Source: Dirinaria sp. TL-2023a
Lineage: Eukaryota
Assembly: GCA_051941275.1 (NCBI GenBank)
Contig: JAVEBF010000026.1
Location: 1 to 47,559, forward strand
Direction of reading: 5' to 3'
DNA: 47,559 bases
Positions 728 to 47,337 of this stretch are shown one piece after another; the first letter of the stretch is position 1; every line of letters starts with the position of its first letter. The translations under genes were made by a program, and so were the position numbers. The notes beneath the pieces are model-generated. The model was given only the letters and a program-made list of their open reading frames with translations. It made no database searches and had not been told where the DNA came from.

Positions 728-1087
728 TTTTAATTTAAATCTAAACTAGACAATGTGTAATTAGCTTACTGTTTACTTTAAAATATATAATAGCAAAACT
801 ATTATTATTAGTGTAGCTAATAATGTAATTAGCTAAAACCAGATATTAGTTAGAGTAAAAGTATATTATTTAAAAACACACTTATTTTTGCGTTAATAAC
901 TAATCATTCCGATATATAATAACGCAAAAATTATATCTAAAAACATGATTATTGTGGATATGAACAATTTTCCCTTCTAATTAGAAATTTATTATATGTG
1001 TAATTGGTTTATTGTCTCTATTTTATAGATACTCTATTAAGTAATGAGACCATTGTTTTTTAATCGGATACTTGCTAATAGAAATTT

Positions 1088-1159
1088 AGGGATACGGAGG
1101 AATTGAACCTCATATTAATGATTTGCAGTCAAAATGTAGTACCATCTACGACGTATCCC
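1088..1159 (-). tRNA. trnC: tRNA-Cys(GCA)
   Basis: Acceptor GGATACG/CGTATCC; anticodon loop CTGCAAA. Confidence 0.88.
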
Positions 1160-1339
1160 CTTGTTACCTAAATTTAGGTAATAAAAATATTATATGTATA
1201 AAATAACTTTTATAATTTGTCCTTTAAAATAAATCTGTTTAGATTTAGAGATACAATTATATTAACATTTATAAATAATACATAAAGCAAGCATAAACTA
1301 AAAAGTAAACATTAAATCTTACGATTAGTTTATAGGTTT

Positions 1340-2472
1340 TTATTGTTCCATTAATCATGAAACAAACTTTTCTATAGAAACCGATTCTATTACTATAGGC
1401 ATAGAACTGTGAAGTATACCACATATTTCTGAACATTGCGTATATCTCAATAATTAGTTCGTATTTTTATTAAGAAAGTATTTATCCCTAAGCATAAATA
1501 TTTATATTTATACCTTTTTAACAAAGAACATTATAAAAGTTCTTCTGCATCTGCACTTTTTCAAGTGGGGTCTGACTATATTTTAAGCTTGCGCCAACCA
1601 ACGTCTAGTCGATGAACTACACACCACTTAACCATTAATAATTATAAATGGTGCTTAGCTGCGGGTCACCCATTGTACTAACTATTGAATCATCAATTTC
1701 TCTTTTACCATACCACGAGCAATTACCTGTGCCACCAAAATATTACTACTTTGACTTGGTTGAAATTGCTTTAGGGACTTCCCGCAATTTGATGGTTTCT
1801 TTTTATTAAAATTAATAAAAATTAGCAAAAGGTTTACTTTTACTTTGGCCTTAGACCAAAAAAAATACCTTGTCTATTGATAAAAACAGATACTTGATTT
1901 AATCTACCGGGGTAAGCATCACATTTAATACCTAAAGCAGGGCAGGCGAAAGAGTGTATAACGTCGGCCCCTGTAACGACAAATCTAACATGAGTTAGTT
2001 CTGGTATAATAACTTTATTATCCACTTCTAACATTCTTAGTGCACCATCTTCTAAATCTGATTCGGGTGTTAAATATGAATCAAATTCGATAAATTCATC
2101 ATCATTATTTAAAAAATCAGGGTACATGTAGCTTCAATATCATTGATGTCCTTCTGCTAATACAACCATAGATGGATCACTAACTTCGTCCATTAAATAT
2201 AGTAGTTTAAAAGAAGGAAATGCTATAAGTAATAAGATTATAGCAGGTGTAATAGTTCAAATTAATTCTATAGATATTCCATGACTTAAGTTTTTATGTG
2301 ATAGAGGTGATTCTAAATTATTATATTTTATTGCTAAAGATACTAATATTCACCCTACAGCAAATAATATTATAACTAAATAAAACAAAATGTTATCATG
2401 TAGTTCAAGTAAACCTTCCATTTGAGGCGATGCACTATCTTGAAAATAAACACCTCAAGGTCTAGGAGCATC
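1340..2472 (-). CDS. cox2: Cytochrome c oxidase subunit 2; exons 2472-1855 and 1438-1340; no own ATG, in frame with cob
   Basis: [25 protein letters not shown] and the CuA motif [17 protein letters not shown] at 1340-1342. Confidence 0.95.
1439..1854 (-). other. Group I intron in cox2, 416 nt, no ORF
   Basis: Exon ends in T (GGT), intron ends in G; core motifs TCATCGACTAGACG and AAATATAGTCAG; splicing restores FFG|QCSE. Confidence 0.9.
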
Positions 2473-2637
2473 CAATCATATAATATTTCCTTCTTTTGAT
2501 GAGGAACCATACTTACGATCTAGTATGAACCAAACTAAAAGGCATCAATGATGAATAACTTTTTTAAAGTTAATTTTACTACTGTATCTAATAAAATTAC
2601 TAGGTATAATGATTTTTTCAGGTAGCACTGTATTATC

Positions 2638-3789
2638 CTTTACCGATAATTCTATTAAAGTATTTTCTAGTAAGCTAATAAAAGGTACTATAATTAAGAA
2701 ATATGAAAAATATATAACTGTAGATATCTGTCCAAACTCTATAAATGGAGATTCAACATGTTTAGCACCTAATAGCATTAAAATTAAAAAGTTACCTATG
2801 AATATAAAAAACGCTGCTTTACTTAAAGGTCTAAACTGTATACCTCTGAATTTAGATAAATCAGTATATGGCATTGCTAATAAAATTAGAATAGCAGAAA
2901 ACATAGCAATAACACCTAATAATTTGTTAGGTATAGATCTCAAGATAGCATAGAAGGGTAATAAATATCACTCGGGTACTATAGCAGGAGGTGTTTGCAT
3001 AGGATTAGCCATCACATAATTTTCACTGTCTCCTAAAAGATTAGGCATAAAAAATACAAAAAGAGATATAACTAACATAAAAATAAAGATAGTTATTAAA
3101 TCTTTAAATATAAAATAAGGTGAGAAAGGTAATCTATCGTAATTACCTGATACACCTAAAGGATTTCCTGAACCTGCACTATCATGTAATGCTATTAAAT
3201 GCATTAAGGCTAACGCAGCTAATATAAAAGGTAAAACGAAATGTAAAGAATAGAATCTATTTAATGTGGCATTGTTAACAGAAAAACCACCTCATAAAAA
3301 TTCAACTATATCCTGTCCAACTCAAGGTATAGCACTCATAAGGTTAGTAATAACTGTTGCACCTCATAAAGACATCTGCCCGTATGGCAAAACGTACCCC
3401 AAAAACGCTGTAGCCATCATTAAAAGAAAGATTATTGTACCTATAGTTCATACCAAAGTTCTAGGCGCTTTGTATGATCCATAGTACAGTCCTCTACCTA
3501 TGTGTAAATAAACTAAAAAAAAAAAAGCAGATGCTGTGTTAGAATGTAAATAACGAACAAACCACCCATTATTTACATCACGCATAATATGTTCTACCGA
3601 ATTGAACGCTTCTAAAACGCTAGGACTGTAATGCATCGCTAAAGTTATACCAGTAACAATTTGTATTCCTAAACAAAAACCTAAAAGAGAGCCGAAATTT
3701 CATAAATAACTTATATTTGAGGGTTGAGGTGAATCTATTACGTATGAATTTGCTAACTTAAGCAAAGGATGACTTTTAAAAATTCTCAT
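2638..3789 (-). CDS. cob: Apocytochrome b; no stop codon, frame continues into cox2
   Basis: MRIFKSHP start, WNFGSLLG, PEWY motif, ends near [10 protein letters not shown]; internal TGAs are Trp. Confidence 0.96.
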
Positions 3790-3919
3790 TATCTCTATAT
3801 GTAGACATATTCTGTTAATGATTGATTATATGTGGAAAAAATACTTACACCTTATTTACTGAAATGTACACACACACACTGTTTACACTACTATTGTTAT
3901 TTAGATAATCTTATTCTAG

Positions 3920-3990
3920 TTTCTTATCTAAGATTCGAACTTAGATATTGATATTAGGAGTATCACATTCTGCCCTTGAATTAATAAGAA
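3920..3990 (-). tRNA. trnR: tRNA-Arg(CCU)
   Basis: Acceptor TTCTTAT/ATAAGAA; anticodon loop CTCCTAA; similar to tRNA-Arg(UCU) at 657-727. Confidence 0.85.
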
Positions 3991-7958: not shown

Positions 7959-8819
7959 CTAACTTAAATTTGTTAGTTGATCACGTATAGATTTATTGTT
8001 AGGCATGTTTCAGTAACGGACTTGGTCATAAGGTCTACCTGCAAAAACTTTATTATAGAATTCACGATTATGAGCAAGAGATCAATCATGCAACCAATCA
8101 TTTAGATACTCACAGAAATATGTCTTACTAGGATTTAATTTATTAGCACGTAAAAATAAAAGGTGATCAGCAACCATTCTACCTACAATCCTATTAGATA
8201 GCCCGTTAGTATGAAAACCACCTATAAGAAACATTCTCCACCTTGCTACCGTTCCGATGTGTACTGGTTTATTCACGTAGCTTTCATCAGGGGAAGGTAA
8301 AGGACTAGTATTTGGATACAGTCCAGGAACTTTTCCAGGTAATTGGGCGGAAGAAGCAGGTATATTATTTGTACCAGACCCGCTAGCTGTTGTAAGTGTA
8401 TTATTTCCACCTTGACCCACACCACCAGAAGTGTTTTGCATATGCATAACTGTTTTTATACCAAATAAATCTCTTATAATATTGGAATCTAGCTTCGGTA
8501 ATATCAAAGTGGTTGAAGATCAGATATATAATAAGCTAATACTTTTTAAAATATCTAAATTGTAATGTACGTATCACATATGTAAGATTGTTGTTACAAT
8601 AATAGGGAAAATTCCTACACATATAAGAATTATAGTGCTTGGTTTATTGTTTCCTTTAATAAAACAAACAGATATAACGTGTAACACTGCTACAATTCCA
8701 CATACTATACAAATATATTCAATAAGACCTAAGTAAGATAATAATTTAATCATAGGTAATTTTAGACCTAAATAGAATAGAATTGATATAGGTAAACTAA
8801 ATTTTATGAAATTTAACAT
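7959..8819 (-). CDS. Orphan membrane-anchored protein, 286 aa (orf286)
   Basis: Track ORFs 8574-8819 and 8082-8507 join through TGA=Trp and run to TAG at 7959-7961; hydrophobic N-terminus, G/S/T/N/P linker, complex C-terminal domain. Confidence 0.8.
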
Positions 8820-13248: not shown

Positions 13249-13887
13249 GTCGAGATAGGTTATTTTATTACTAAAACTTCCCCCTCTAAGAACCGTACAA
13301 GCGACTTTCATCGCATACGGCTCGAGCACTAATTTTTTTTTATAAATTATTAGCACCAGTTATAAGTCTGCGTTCTTTCGAACAGGTTATAAACCTATTA
13401 TTGCCATTACAGCAACACATTCGCTTTTTACAACATCCTTTACCCCCTAATGTGTATATGACCTTGCGATCATACTTCCATGTACTATTTAACATACATG
13501 GGCATTATGGGGCTTACCTAGTTCATTTAATAACACCTTAATAATTACCTTAGGATTGCACTATACGTAGGTTGAAAAAGACCCATAAAATGAAAAACGA
13601 AAAATTTTCATTACATTCAACCCCCAATGTTTTATTGTTTTTTTCTAATTGCTAGTTATACGCTTCAAACATGCATTCATTTACTTATCCTTAGTAATTT
13701 AGCTCACCAGCCTTTAACACTCATTCTTATTAGGCTGGATAATTATTATTATATTGTATAAGTAATAACTACGATTTAGCGGGCTTCACACATAGAAATT
13801 ACTCTCCATACATGCCGCATGAGCTCAGATAATGGGTTATCAGAAGGGTTTTCACCTTATTGTTATTAAACGCTTATCTAGTCGCAC
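13249..13887 (-). mobile_element. ORF-less group II intron (IIB-like), 639 nt, in rnl near the L2059 site
   Basis: 5' GTGCGAC; domain V GAGCCGTATGCGATGAAAGTCGCTTGTACGGTTC; domain VI with bulged A 8 nt before the 3' AC end; exons rejoin as GACGAGA|AGACCCTA. Confidence 0.93.
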
Positions 13888-18659: not shown

Positions 18660-19926
18660 CACCACAACTAAAATTAAATTCTTAATATAATCCATTCCTA
18701 TATCTGTTAACGAGAATTATTTAGCTAAACCCTTAGATGTTAATGTTACTAATGGTCCTATTAGTCATCTTTATTTAGAAATTAGTGGTAAGTTAACTAA
18801 TTTTATAGATATTATTATAGATAAAGCCAAAATTTTAAGACCTAACCATAAAGATAAAATAATTTATTTTTATAGTAATTGGTAGTTTCATTTACTTAAA
18901 GATAAGTTTTATTATATATTAGCTGTTAAAGTATTAAATGCAAATTCTATTGAAAAAATTAGATATTCTTTAAACGGTGTTATTATTAACCATATTATTG
19001 ATAAGGTAGTTGGTAATCTTATTGAGAGAAATTTAGGGGAAAAACAGCTTATCATAGATGGAGATAAAATAGTTTTTAGTAGACAAAATGTTAAATTAAA
19101 AGCTCTTTAAAAATCTAAACATGTTAAACCCCAATTTGTAGAAAATAGCAAGATAGGTGTTATTGACTTAGAAACTTATAAAATTAATGAGAGTACTTTT
19201 AAAGTTTATGCTTTAGGTTTTAAAACAAACTTAGAGGTAAAATCTAAGGTATATTACATAGATAAGGAGAAGTTAGACTCAAAGAAAAGATTCTTTTCCT
19301 TAATCGATGAATTACTTAGACCTAAATATAATTTAGTTACATTTTATTGTCATAACTTAGGCGTATTTGATATCGTATTCATTTTAAATGCTTTATACAG
19401 TTATAATGAACAAGACCAAGCTGATAAAGATAAAGTATCTTGTGTTTTAAGACATGATAAAATTATTAAGGTAAAAGCTAGTAAGGATAAAAACAGTTTT
19501 ACTATTTTAGATAGTTATGCTATGATGGCTGATAACCTTGATAAGTTAGGACTTAATTTTAAGGTATCTATTATTAAATCTAAATTTCCTTACAGATTTG
19601 CCGTACAAGATCACTTATTTTACAAAGGATCTATGCCTGGTATTGAATACTACGATAACATTACACTAGGGGAATATAATAATTTAATTGTATCATATTG
19701 AAATATGAAAGAAGAAACACTTAAATATTTAAATAATGATCTTTATACTTTACACCAAATTTTAATTAAAGCAAATAAACAAGTATTTTTAGATTATAGA
19801 ATTAATATAAGCGAATCTGTTACCATATCGGGTCTTGTTTTTAAGATATATTTAAAAGATTTTTATAATAATAATATACCTAATATAAACAACGTTAGTA
19901 TTTACAATTACATTAGAGAAGCATAG
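18660..19926 (+). pseudogene. dpo: Linear-plasmid family B DNA polymerase fragment (exonuclease region)
   Basis: ExoI GVIDLETY, ExoII FYCHNLGVFD, ILDSY, KSKFPYRF and ExoIII YLNNDL; internal stops; truncated at IREA*. Confidence 0.88.
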
Positions 19927-36362: not shown

Positions 36363-39300
36363 TTACTGTTGCGTACAATCTGACGATTCATTCCTCTCAT
36401 CTATATAGTCAGATGGTGCTTGATCCGTAACAGGTTCTTGATCAGCTCTATCCTTTCACGCGGGTCTTGTTTTGTCAGTGTAACAATATTCATGTTTTTC
36501 TTCCTCGGTAATACATTCCCCATGATAAGAGCAACTACACTTGCATTCTCAGATCACAGGGCCATAAACATCCTCACCACACCTACAACATTGTTTATGG
36601 TAAGCCTTTATATTATTTTCGTAAATTTCTGAGGGTTCACCACCAGGCCCATTTATCGACGGAGCTCCTCAATCGTCTATATGTGGTTGAGCTAAAGGGT
36701 ATGGTAGCCATGCCTCGCGCCTTTGACGTCAGCCATCATGGTTAGGCCGGTCCAAACATGATTGACCCGCATCATGACTACAATTGTTTAGCTTAAATTT
36801 TTCTTCAAGCTCCGCAGGTGTCAGATTTTCTTGATTTCTCACCGGCTCCGTTGGAGAATTAGAATCTGGTAAATAACCAGACGGGTTATTAGTTTCTTCT
36901 GTGTTACTAGCTCCTTCTGTATTACTAGCTCCTTCTGTATTACTAGCTTCTTCTATACTACTAACTGTGTCAGGGTTAACCATAAATTCCGGATTTAATG
37001 CCAAATTTGAAAAATTTCATGTTAATAAATATAATATTCAAGTTATCAATTTAAATTTTAGAGGATTATTCATAATTCATAAAAAAATAAGTATTGCATA
37101 ATAATATAAATTAAGTTTTTTATTTTGTAAAGATAAACCCGCTAATAGTTTAGGACTAATTAAAGATCACTTAAAAACACTTGGCACAGTCTTATTTAAA
37201 CCTACATATAAGGCCAGCACAAAAAGTAAAAAGATAAAATAGTTAAGAAGAGAAAAATAAGGTATTAACATATAGATAAGTAAACCTATTAATATGTAAA
37301 GAGCGTAAGACGTAATAACGCCACTATCTAAATCCGCTATTTTTCTACTTAAATTAAGTAGTGCTCTTTCTAAACCGAAAGGACCAATTAATTCTACAGA
37401 ACCTTTATCTAAAGCTTTTGTAGTATGTGCACCTAATTTGAAAACAAGATTGGTAATATATTTGTTATAAAAAAGCTCAATTAAGAAACGCTGGTTAAGA
37501 AAACTAAACACATTAGAACCTATTTTAGATAGTTTAAAGTAAATAAGTAAAGAAGGTAAATATTCAGAAAATAGTAAAGATATAAGGATTAATATTACTG
37601 TTAGAGTTAAAGGTAATAATTTAAACACGTTTGTTACGGCGAATTCTGTATCTAACATAATTTCATGTACAGGGTGTATGAATATACTATTATCTGAGAA
37701 AAACCCAGAGCCTAAACCAATAAAAATATCTTTAGTTAAATAACCAAAAAATATAGAAAATACTGCTAATACAATTAAGGGCATGCTCATAAAAATATCA
37801 CCTTCATGTGCTTTCTTATAGTTAAGAAATGGCCCATTAGGATTAGTCAAGAATGTTAAGTATAATACTTTAAATGAATATAAAGTAGTAAACATAGCAC
37901 CAATGGTTGCTATAAAATACACTATAATACTAGAATAAGAAAAGTGTCCATATGCTGATTCAAGTATAAGATCTTTACTGTAGAAGCCAGTCATAAAAGG
38001 AAAGGCTACTAAACTAAGAGAAGCTATTAACATAACTGAATAAGTTAAGGGTAAAAATGCTTTTAACCCTCCATATTTTCTAAAATCTTGATTATCAGCT
38101 CAAGCATGTATAACAGCACCAGCTCCTAAAAAGAGTAATCCCTTATAAAAAGCATGATTTACCAAATGAAATAAGGCAATATTATAAGACGATAAACCTA
38201 TAGCTATAACCATCATACCTAATTGCAATTATGTGTTACAATTTAATTTTAAAACACATATATTTTGGACCATTTATTTATTAATTTTTATATTTATTTA
38301 TATCATCCATAATTGTAACTAATCTAATAAGTTTCTTTAAACCATCATTACTTGGCATTCTTTTGGGTCTACAATCATAAAATTTTTGTATTAAAACAAA
38401 TCTAGATGCTTTAGCTGTTCTTAGAGGATATTTACTAAAATATCTGTCTATTAAATTATATATTTCAACTGTTCTAAAAACTTCGTATTTAAAAGCTTCT
38501 ATTCTAGTAATTGTAGGACAAACTCTACCTCAATATAATTTTTGTAAGGGTTCTAATAAATATTTATTTTTTTGAGTAACACTTATAGAAATTTGCCCAA
38601 ATGAATCATCCAAATCTATTGAGCCACTACTGTCTATAAAACCACTAAACCAACCGTTGTCGAAAGTTAAAGCTAATGGTTCTTTAAAGTTTATGCCATA
38701 TTTAATACATAATTTATTTAACTGTAGCATACGACTTGGGTCTCTAATCAAACCATTTACTGCATTAATAAAACGAATAATACCTTTTTTACTGCGTATT
38801 TTATATTTTAATGCTTTACCACTTGATACAGAAGTTATTCTTCCTCCATACACGTACATAATTTCATATAATACTGCTTTATCTTTTACATCCATTGTGA
38901 TTTCGCAACTTGCATAGCCTTTTTTGGTTAAGTTAAAACAACCACTACCATCCATTAGACCAGCTAATCATTCATAAAATTTTCTCATCTTTGTATCTCG
39001 AGAAATAGATTCATTATTAGGCATATTTATTTTTTCGCTTACTGGTGTAATTTTTAGATTAGATGTGGCATTTAAAGGTGCACAGTTAAATATACACAGT
39101 ATGTTTGATGTAGTTATATTAGACGTATAATTATAAAGAATAGTTATAAGCATTGTATAGATAAGTGAGATAAATGATTCATATCGTAAATTAATCTTTA
39201 TTAATTTAATATCAATTAATATCAAACGTATGGCCTCTGAGATTCCTACTAGCTTGCTTATAATAATAAATTTTCACCTGTATATTTCTCTAACTCGTTT

Positions 39301-40661: not shown

Positions 40662-41014
40662 TGTTGTTTTATTATTTAATTAATACTTATTAATTACTTT
40701 ATCATTATTTTTGATTAGTAACGATTATTAGTCTAGTTGTACTTTCTTTTTTAATCAAAAAAAAAGTATTAAAAAAAATAGGCTATTTTTTAGTTTAAAT
40801 TTATAATATATGTAAATAATGGGTGATTGGTTCATTCTTTACATTCTAACACAGCATCTGCTTTTTTTTTAGTTTATTTACACATAGATCAGTACAAAGC
40901 GCCTAGAACTTTGGTATGATCTATAGGTACAGTAACCTATCATTTGATGATGAAAAGCGTTAAAAGAAATAAATAATTTTTATTTCTCCTTTTTATTTAA
41001 ACTTATTTTAGGGT

Positions 41015-42542: not shown

Positions 42543-46696
<4,154 letters not shown>

Positions 46697-46845: not shown

Positions 46846-47073
46846 TTAACAAGGTTGACCACACCTTGGACAGTTTCTACCTGGTAACACTCAAGTTACT
46901 TCTCCCAGGTGTAAACAGTTAGGACACCTAACACCTCGTACAGCTGGATAGAATATAGGTATCATTATAAATATTAAAGAACAAACAATAATTAATGATA
47001 ATGTGTCTACTGAGTATAATGTAGAAGCTATAGTATAGTAAACTGATAATAACATGTTAAAGAATGGTGTCAT
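46846..47073 (-). CDS. 75-aa hydrophobic protein with zinc-ribbon-like tail (paralog A)
   Basis: Ends GVRCPNCLHLGEVTWVLPGRNCPRCGQPC* under code 4. Confidence 0.85.
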
Positions 47074-47109
47074 ATATTTAAAATAAACTAATGGAAAATG
47101 GTAAGGTAA

Positions 47110-47337
47110 TTAGCAAGGGTGAAAACACTTTGGACAGTATTTACCCGGTAAGACTCATTGTTCTATTCCACGTTCTCAACATTTAGGACACCTAACACCA
47201 GGCATAGGATCCGACATTATTGGAAGAAGTATTAATATTAAAAAGCAAACAAGAATTGAACTTAGTGTATCTATAGAAGCTAACTCTCTAGCTAATATAG
47301 AGTTAAGTGCTAGTAACATATCAAAAAGTGTTGTCAT
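47110..47337 (-). CDS. 75-aa hydrophobic protein with zinc-ribbon-like tail (paralog B); absent from the ORF track
   Basis: MTTLFDMLL...GVRCPKCWERGIEQWVLPGKYCPKCFHPC*. Confidence 0.85.

Follow-up and report, generated by a model that had tools for sequence, protein, structure and literature searches.

A fused cob-cox2 frame in the mitogenome of a Dirinaria lichen fungus, its spread among relatives and a candidate route to separate subunits

A fusion of cob and cox2 has been published for the lichen fungi Umbilicaria pustulata and Usnea ceratina, in a report whose accessible text leaves open both its date of origin and the way in which the products are separated (PMC7186782). Like that fusion, the locus described here places cox2 head to tail behind cob, within a single unbroken Lecanoromycete frame. 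Unlike it, the locus belongs to a fungus near Heterodermia that has no mitochondrial atp9 and carries an outlier linker. A further study finds cob and cox2 adjacent in 8/8 lichen mitogenomes compared, and in its accessible part does not term this a fusion (PMC13705890). Two cytochrome b entries in NCBI nr, from Peltigera elisabethae and P. polydactylon (652 and 683 aa), run from Cob into Cox2 with the same helix and Cys-Asp site as described below. The available text of a Peltigera paper handles cytb and cox2 as two genes, gives cox2 an ATT, ATA or GTG start and mentions no fusion (PMC10607270).

More distant parallels are the cox1/2 ORFs of Pleosporales, Acanthamoeba and Dictyostelium, where Cox2 also lies behind another membrane subunit with no intervening stop; for Acanthamoeba two products are reported in the part of the source available (PMC5626475). 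Those ORFs join two complex IV partners, whereas cob-cox2 joins two different complexes. The yeast Cox2 precursor, handled by Imp1 and Som1 (accessible text of PMC8835746 and PMC8847149), is cut by IMP before an acidic first residue, as we infer for the lichen protein. The yeast leader is short and free, with Asn before the cut, whereas in the lichens Cob plus a helix would serve as leader and Cys or Leu precedes Asp. Yeast Arg5,6 likewise yields two proteins from one precursor (PMC8835746, in the part available), but it is nuclear-encoded and soluble, and its cleavage in the matrix uses Arg motifs, which the lichen linkers do not conserve. The accessible parts of two other papers hold nothing on a cob-cox2 fusion (PMC11881002, PMC6467859), and a literature search thin on subscription papers, some sources being available only in part, met no class-wide survey of the fusion or analysis of its linkers. 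The fusion is known in kind; what is added here is its breadth, the design of its linker and the unusual condition in which it occurs in this fungus.

The cob-cox2 frame and its mitogenome

The window, by which we mean the whole 47,559-nt stretch analysed (contig JAVEBF010000026.1 of assembly GCA_051941275.1, Dirinaria sp. TL-2023a), is a complete circular fungal mitogenome with a 141-base overlap between its ends. It holds both rRNAs, 25 tRNAs (ARAGORN) and the usual respiratory genes, and is read with NCBI code 4. The top named Cox2 matches are lichen fungi, headed by Heterodermia casarettiana (86%), and indicate a Lecanoromycete host near Heterodermia; in a quick Cox2-domain tree (206 columns) the window and Heterodermia share an 18-row clade with an SH-aLRT of 96. 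The best-matching runs are lichen and phyllosphere metagenomes, with run shares below 0.2 excluded from this habitat reading. No atp9 ORF was seen in the mitogenome, a loss known among lichen fungi (PMC6467859, in its accessible text); contig C461 (G000:C461) bears a nuclear Atp9-like gene that is extended at its N-terminus.

The initial annotation had described cob and cox2 as one 677-codon frame, and this is borne out. Starting with the cob ATG (3789), the frame extends for 645 codons as far as 1855, is interrupted by a 416-nt intron and continues through exon 2 to 1340, giving 677 residues; after splicing, and under code 4, it has a single terminal TAA and zero internal TAA or TAG (Table 1). 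Free-standing Cob proteins of related loci stop 3-23 residues past the point equal to codon 381. The linker of about 55 residues noted in that annotation corresponds to the last 55 of the 58 linker codons, which contain no ATG; possible non-ATG starts within them are GTG, ATT and ATA, plus a TTG immediately 5' of the Asp codon. An open run of 58 codons arises in 1.3% of shuffles of the linker bases and in 3.6% (450/12,526) of overlapping non-coding window frames, before allowing for the required frame (1 in 3). No nuclear copy of cob or cox2 was found. The tRNA genes on either side of the unit are likely to mark its 5' (tRNA-Arg) and 3' (tRNA-Cys) processing.

Table 1. Features of the cob-cox2 unit in the window (all on the minus strand).
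Feature	Coordinates	Strand	Remarks
tRNA-Arg(CCT)	3919..3990	-	upstream of the unit
Cytochrome b domain	2647..3789	-	codons 1-381; ATG start, no stop
Linker	2473..2646	-	58 open codons, no ATG, fast-evolving; between Cob L381 and Cox2 D440
IRYSS	2578..2592	-	MPP site proposed in the initial annotation; not conserved
Hydrophobic block	2521..2559	-	residues 411-423; presumed additional pass through the membrane, among the weakest in the family
Leu-Asp junction, TTG GAT	2470..2475	-	presumed IMP-type cut; TTG also a possible internal start
Mature Cox2, exon 1	1855..2472	-	206 codons; 86% to Heterodermia casarettiana Cox2
Group I intron	1439..1854	-	416 nt, no long ORF; Rfam RF00028, 74.5 bits
Cox2, exon 2	1340..1438	-	32 codons + TAA; completes the CuA motif
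tRNA-Cys	1087..1160	-	downstream of the unit

Two assembled contigs bridge the linker. One, from RNA run X1 of a close relative, spans 2353-2727 with 375 letters over 375 places, including 25 other letters and 14 gap letters and with no net length change; the other, from run X2, also of a close relative, spans 2437-2767 (331/331) with no net length change. These contigs come from two studies, and they show the length of the linker in relatives rather than its codons or stops. The cox2 intron has a U-ending exon, a G-ending intron and a group I core, and its splice junction finds support in a relative (X6) that lacks the intron, where 1438 and 1856 are separated by a single letter. A separate RNA-run X1 contig at 1439-1846 covers nearly the whole intron and begins at its 3' end, like a released intron. 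A hidden frameshift in the window linker was considered against five close relatives, and the 0-4 points gained by frameshift-aware alignment were unconvincing.

Several other features of the mitogenome were recorded in passing. A decayed inverted copy of cob (codons ~71-127, 80% identical) lies at 40810-40952 on the plus strand, between cox1 and nad4L. On the minus strand, nad5 has an in-frame run-on of ~270 residues (36363-37200) with two hydrophobic stretches, a short repeat and a Cys-rich hydrophilic domain; it has no Pfam match, and many related loci carry comparable extensions behind nad3 or nad5. The Cox1 C-terminus carries a short hydrophobic run-on (42543-42650, minus strand). A plasmid-type DNA polymerase B fragment lies on the opposite strand (19111-19926, plus; PF03175, E 1.7e-31), and group II intron domains adjoin the large rRNA match (13249-13844, minus). 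Two tandem related small ORFs (46846-47337, minus) each combine a hydrophobic stretch with two CxxC pairs; the one scanned has no Pfam match. A 286-codon ORF within a tRNA cluster (7959-8819, minus), also with no Pfam match, has a hydrophobic N-half and a Gly/Ser-rich hinge.

Distribution of the fusion among lichen fungi

A search for the junction gave 2523 matches from 2960 candidates, and among the matches listed 120/120 are Cob then Cox2 in one chain. Together with the window these gave 121 linkers, two of them, from proteins with internal duplications, parsed by hand, which reduce to 80 distinct sequences at a 40% identity cut-off over the last 45 residues. Whether relatives keep the linker open had been put forward as a check on the fusion: they do, in all of at least 80 distinct linkers, with lengths of 43-330 residues (median 61). 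Six of the proteins (P0002, P0005, P0055, P0088, P0100 and P0116) have internal duplications or a common 200-300-residue linker insert with the frame kept, and the linker of P0005 includes a piece resembling the Cox1 tail.

The ranking of the junction search favours fused forms, and DNA was therefore also chosen by Cox2 alone. Among 80 metagenome loci selected in this way, cob lies directly upstream in 8 and is fused in 7 of them, of which three are closely related; in the eighth, cob ends in a stop and cox2 has its own Met leader. Twelve further loci include one with cob upstream, again separate and with a Met leader on cox2. A cob stop combined with an ATG-less cox2 was found in 0/9 of these cob-adjacent loci. 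Fungal mitochondrial cox2 regions also appear in 11 loci of prokaryote assemblies (L092-L102), probably as contamination.

Named records point the same way. Nine of ten stand-alone lichen Cox2 records, from Lecanora (two), Imshaugia, Parmotrema, Gomphillus, Phaeoplaca, Leptogium, Peltigera and Heterodermia, match at 95-100% identity a domain inside Cob-Cox2 fusions from other assemblies, the records and their matching fusions coming from different isolates; for the tenth, from Bacidia, the best identity to a fusion is 86%. The annotated first Met of several of these records is Ser, Ile, Val or Leu within the matching fusion, while in Gomphillus and Leptogium it is a true Met there too. Within the clade of the window, 17/17 metagenomic rows are fused. 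These data suggest that the cob-cox2 fusion is widespread and common across the main orders of lichen fungi, as judged from sequence; since 63/105 inner branches of the quick tree are open, the number of its origins cannot be counted.

This spread also bears on the idea that the open linker reflects faulty assembly, or that this one isolate lost its cob stop recently and neutrally. The window linker does differ strongly from those of close relatives, but fusions with at least 80 distinct linkers, in 17/17 clade rows and near nine named lichen taxa, make this explanation extremely improbable.

Linker design and candidate cleavage sites

The N-terminus of mature Cox2 lies in the intermembrane space. 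The C-terminus of Cob lies on the matrix side, according to the accessible text of a published source (10.1101/2022.11.25.517933), and a single chain therefore needs exactly one extra membrane crossing. The 80 linkers share a layout that would provide it, with a polar matrix stretch, one hydrophobic helix predicted 13-26 residues before Cox2 and then, in 65/80, a Cys-Asp site. Counted back from the Asp, positions -26 to -13 have a mean hydropathy of 1.66, compared with 0.14 +/- 0.08 in shuffled linkers (reached in 0/1000 shuffles), and 63/80 linkers contain a 17-residue window of at least 1.6. Taken linker by linker the signal is weaker, with 30/79 at p<0.05 in a first parse. The segment preceding the helix carries more net charge than the one following it in 54/80 and less in 7/80. 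The residue before the Asp is C in 65, L in 8, S in 3, M in 2, N in 1 and T in 1. All these counts are drawn from related rows, so that the 80 linkers are not independent events.

Free-standing cox2 genes have Cys before the Asp in 70/70, where it ends a short Met-started leader, and an ATG within 20 codons of the site in 59/70. In the fusions a nearby Met is at chance level (27/80 against 26.2), and 22/80 linkers have none at all. The sequence between Cob and Cox2 is otherwise barely conserved; in three pairs the changes are mostly non-synonymous, with no purifying selection, and repeats in the linker are short and at chance level only. Four fungal cox1-cox2 fusions (L006, L018, L047 and L103) have the same helix and Cys-Asp site. 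Locus L044 was rejected as a cox1-adjacent locus and dropped from the count, being a cox1 tail fragment on nad5. The shared layout, ending in the site that closes the leader of free Cox2 and recurring in the cox1-cox2 fusions, speaks for a polyprotein that an IMP-type peptidase cuts ahead of the Asp.

The window is an outlier within this design. The initial annotation had taken its WCLLVWFIL block to be a membrane-crossing segment, and its position is the right one, but it is among the weakest of the family: the best 17-residue hydropathy is 1.06, the third lowest of 80 and below all ten scored helices of its own Cob and Cox2 (1.22-3.07), which counts against the route favoured below. A low-confidence AlphaFold2 model of the exon-1 protein (41 rows; mean pLDDT 48.7, pTM 0.27) has a helix at 408-431 and was useless for domain contacts. 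The closest relative among the matches listed, P0003, is identical to the window at 180/181 Cob and 196/206 Cox2 positions, and its 65-residue linker aligns with that of the window over the first part only. Five close relatives retain a longer hydrophobic block and Cys-Asp.

The cleavage site proper is Leu-Asp in the window. Imp1 reportedly also accepts Ala, Ser, Cys, Leu and Met before the cut (Chen et al., 1999), a tolerance that fits the residues seen before the Asp. In the accessible text of PMC8835746 the yeast Imp1 consensus is [I/V][H/D/F/M]N↓[D/E], from which the window site (I-W-L↓D) departs: the acidic residue after the cut and the hydrophobic residue at -3 agree with the rule for Imp1 substrates, and the Asn is replaced by Leu here and by Cys in most relatives.

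An additional cut by MPP on the matrix side, at IRY↓SS, had been proposed in the initial annotation and is not supported. Five MPP patterns were tested on the matrix side of the 80 linkers. The R-x↓S/A pattern occurs in 17/80 against 17.0 in shuffled sequences, R-x-x-S/A in 22/80 against 16.8 (reached by 25/500 shuffles) and the R-3 pattern in 5/80 against 3.6, again at chance level; 27/80 linkers have no Arg. The exact motif proposed is found in 2/80 including the window, against 0.3 expected, and is too rare to be the mechanism. By this Arg-motif test, the suggestion that the fusion is a polyprotein split by MPP finds no support. A hydrophobic-Q/K-S motif, chosen by eye, is present in 24/66 short linkers against 9.4 expected, lies 0-42 residues from the helix and resembles the natural end of Cox1; it is absent from the window and is only a lead.

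Taken together, we favour a single-chain route for this organism, at a probability of about 0.6, and consider it more probable still for the family as a whole. Translation of one mRNA would begin at the cob ATG and yield a Cob-linker-Cox2 precursor. With the Cob end on the matrix side, the linker helix would act as an internal signal sequence leading into the intermembrane space, and because the helix carries the chain across, Cox2 would keep its normal topology. An IMP-family peptidase would then cut ahead of Asp440, at the site inherited from the Cox2 leader. The Cob tail may be kept as a ninth helix or trimmed by another protease, MPP at an Arg motif not being indicated. Both subunits would be made in equal numbers, and their final levels could differ. 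The 1:1 coupling of a complex III and a complex IV subunit put forward in the initial annotation holds for synthesis, if the frame is translated whole, and does not follow for the assembled complexes. Points against the single-chain route are the weak helix of the window, the departure of its site from the yeast consensus, the defects of its Imp1-like gene (see below), the probable usability of non-ATG starts and the lack of purifying selection on linkers in the three pairs.

An unlikely alternative is that translation also begins internally at a non-ATG codon, the TTG before Asp440, to give a leaderless Cox2, while the read-through tail from cob is trimmed or degraded. The TTG sits directly before the Asp codon, and cox1 of the same mitogenome has neither ATG nor TTG nor GTG ahead of the conserved region where it starts (46600-46696, minus strand), so that non-ATG initiation is probably usable here. 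Non-ATG cox2 starts are annotated for lichens in GenBank, Met occupies the position in 2/80 linkers and the Imp1-like gene appears broken (see below). However, the annotated start codons vary between taxa, the position is held by Cys, which has no start codon, in 65/80, and two other Leu-Asp cases are coded CTG and CTT. An internal start also leaves the open frame unexplained, a cob stop with an ATG-less cox2 being absent from all nine cob-adjacent loci.

Separation at the RNA level, by cutting or editing of the transcript within the linker so that cox2 gains its own mRNA, seems decidedly improbable. The question has been raised for cox1/2 in Stemphylium (PMC5626475), and Lecanoromycete genes with no clear stop are known (PMC7186782), both in the accessible portions of these sources; the latter, however, describes an Umbilicaria transcript that is uninterrupted across the fusion. 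The RNA-run contig of a close relative spans the linker, with the reservation that a contig is no single molecule and may be DNA. RNA of the linker folds no better than shuffles (z -1.17), and the conserved protein-level helix and Cys-Asp site would be left unexplained.

Processing genes and meaning of the fusion

The single-chain route calls on an IMP-family peptidase, probably Imp1 in most lichens. Three S26 peptidase genes were found in the assembly (C118, C1158 and C1278), which by their motifs we take to be Imp2-like, Sec11-like and Imp1-like, respectively; Som1 and Cox20 genes are also present. In the Imp2-like gene the catalytic Ser and Lys are intact. The Imp1-like gene (C1278; L083 1348-2121, plus strand) encodes Leu where three site-covering relatives have the catalytic Ser, and has a TAA in frame ahead of its 63-base intron, which could be avoided only by splicing out a 27-base intron of unusual shortness. 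Family and protein searches and a motif scan of the 3105-contig assembly for a second Imp1 returned the same three S26 genes only; the motif scan gave 3 matches, of which C1278 is the sole peptidase and the other hits are unrelated. These searches are insensitive, the family search having missed the Imp2-like gene. When named relatives of this Imp1-like family were sought, the query alone came back, so that its orthology rests on motifs and an Atlas lead (scores 0.86-0.88); the case is also that of a single organism.

The proposal that IMP releases Cox2 is supported for the family and clouded in this organism by the broken-looking Imp1-like gene. Here Imp2 may do the cutting, or else an Imp1 copy that the assembly lacks; in mammals, a substrate is known to have passed from Imp1 to IMP2 (accessible text of PMC8847149).

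The same gene lends some weight to an uncut fusion, in which Cob and Cox2 would remain one covalent chain linking complexes III and IV. An outlier linker combined with a sole Imp1-like gene found, which has lost the catalytic Ser and carries an in-frame stop, speaks for such a tether. In yeast, however, unprocessed Cox2 is not known to assemble, and in this assembly the Imp2-like gene is intact and Som1 is present. The weak helix would still have to cross the membrane, family linkers of 43-330 residues are incompatible with a fixed geometry, and the apparent lack of Imp1 comes from insensitive searches of an assembly in 3105 contigs. We regard a tether as quite unlikely. A mixed history, to which we give the same low weight as the internal start, is that the polyprotein was inherited and is normally split by Imp1, that this lineage lost active Imp1 and its linker decayed, and that Cox2 is now either tethered or made leaderless from the TTG.

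For lichen fungi at large, many deposited cox2 records with odd starts probably correspond to the second half of a fused gene. The question of separation raised for Umbilicaria in 2020 gains a testable answer in the single-chain route, in which an internal signal-like helix and the old Cox2 leader site would suffice and MPP would be unneeded. As cox1-cox2 fusions share the helix and the Cys-Asp site, this design may be a general way of chaining mitochondrial genes. If Imp1 is truly dead in this Dirinaria fungus, the organism would be a natural test case for other ways of freeing Cox2; if the tether were true, it would possess a gene-encoded link between complexes III and IV.
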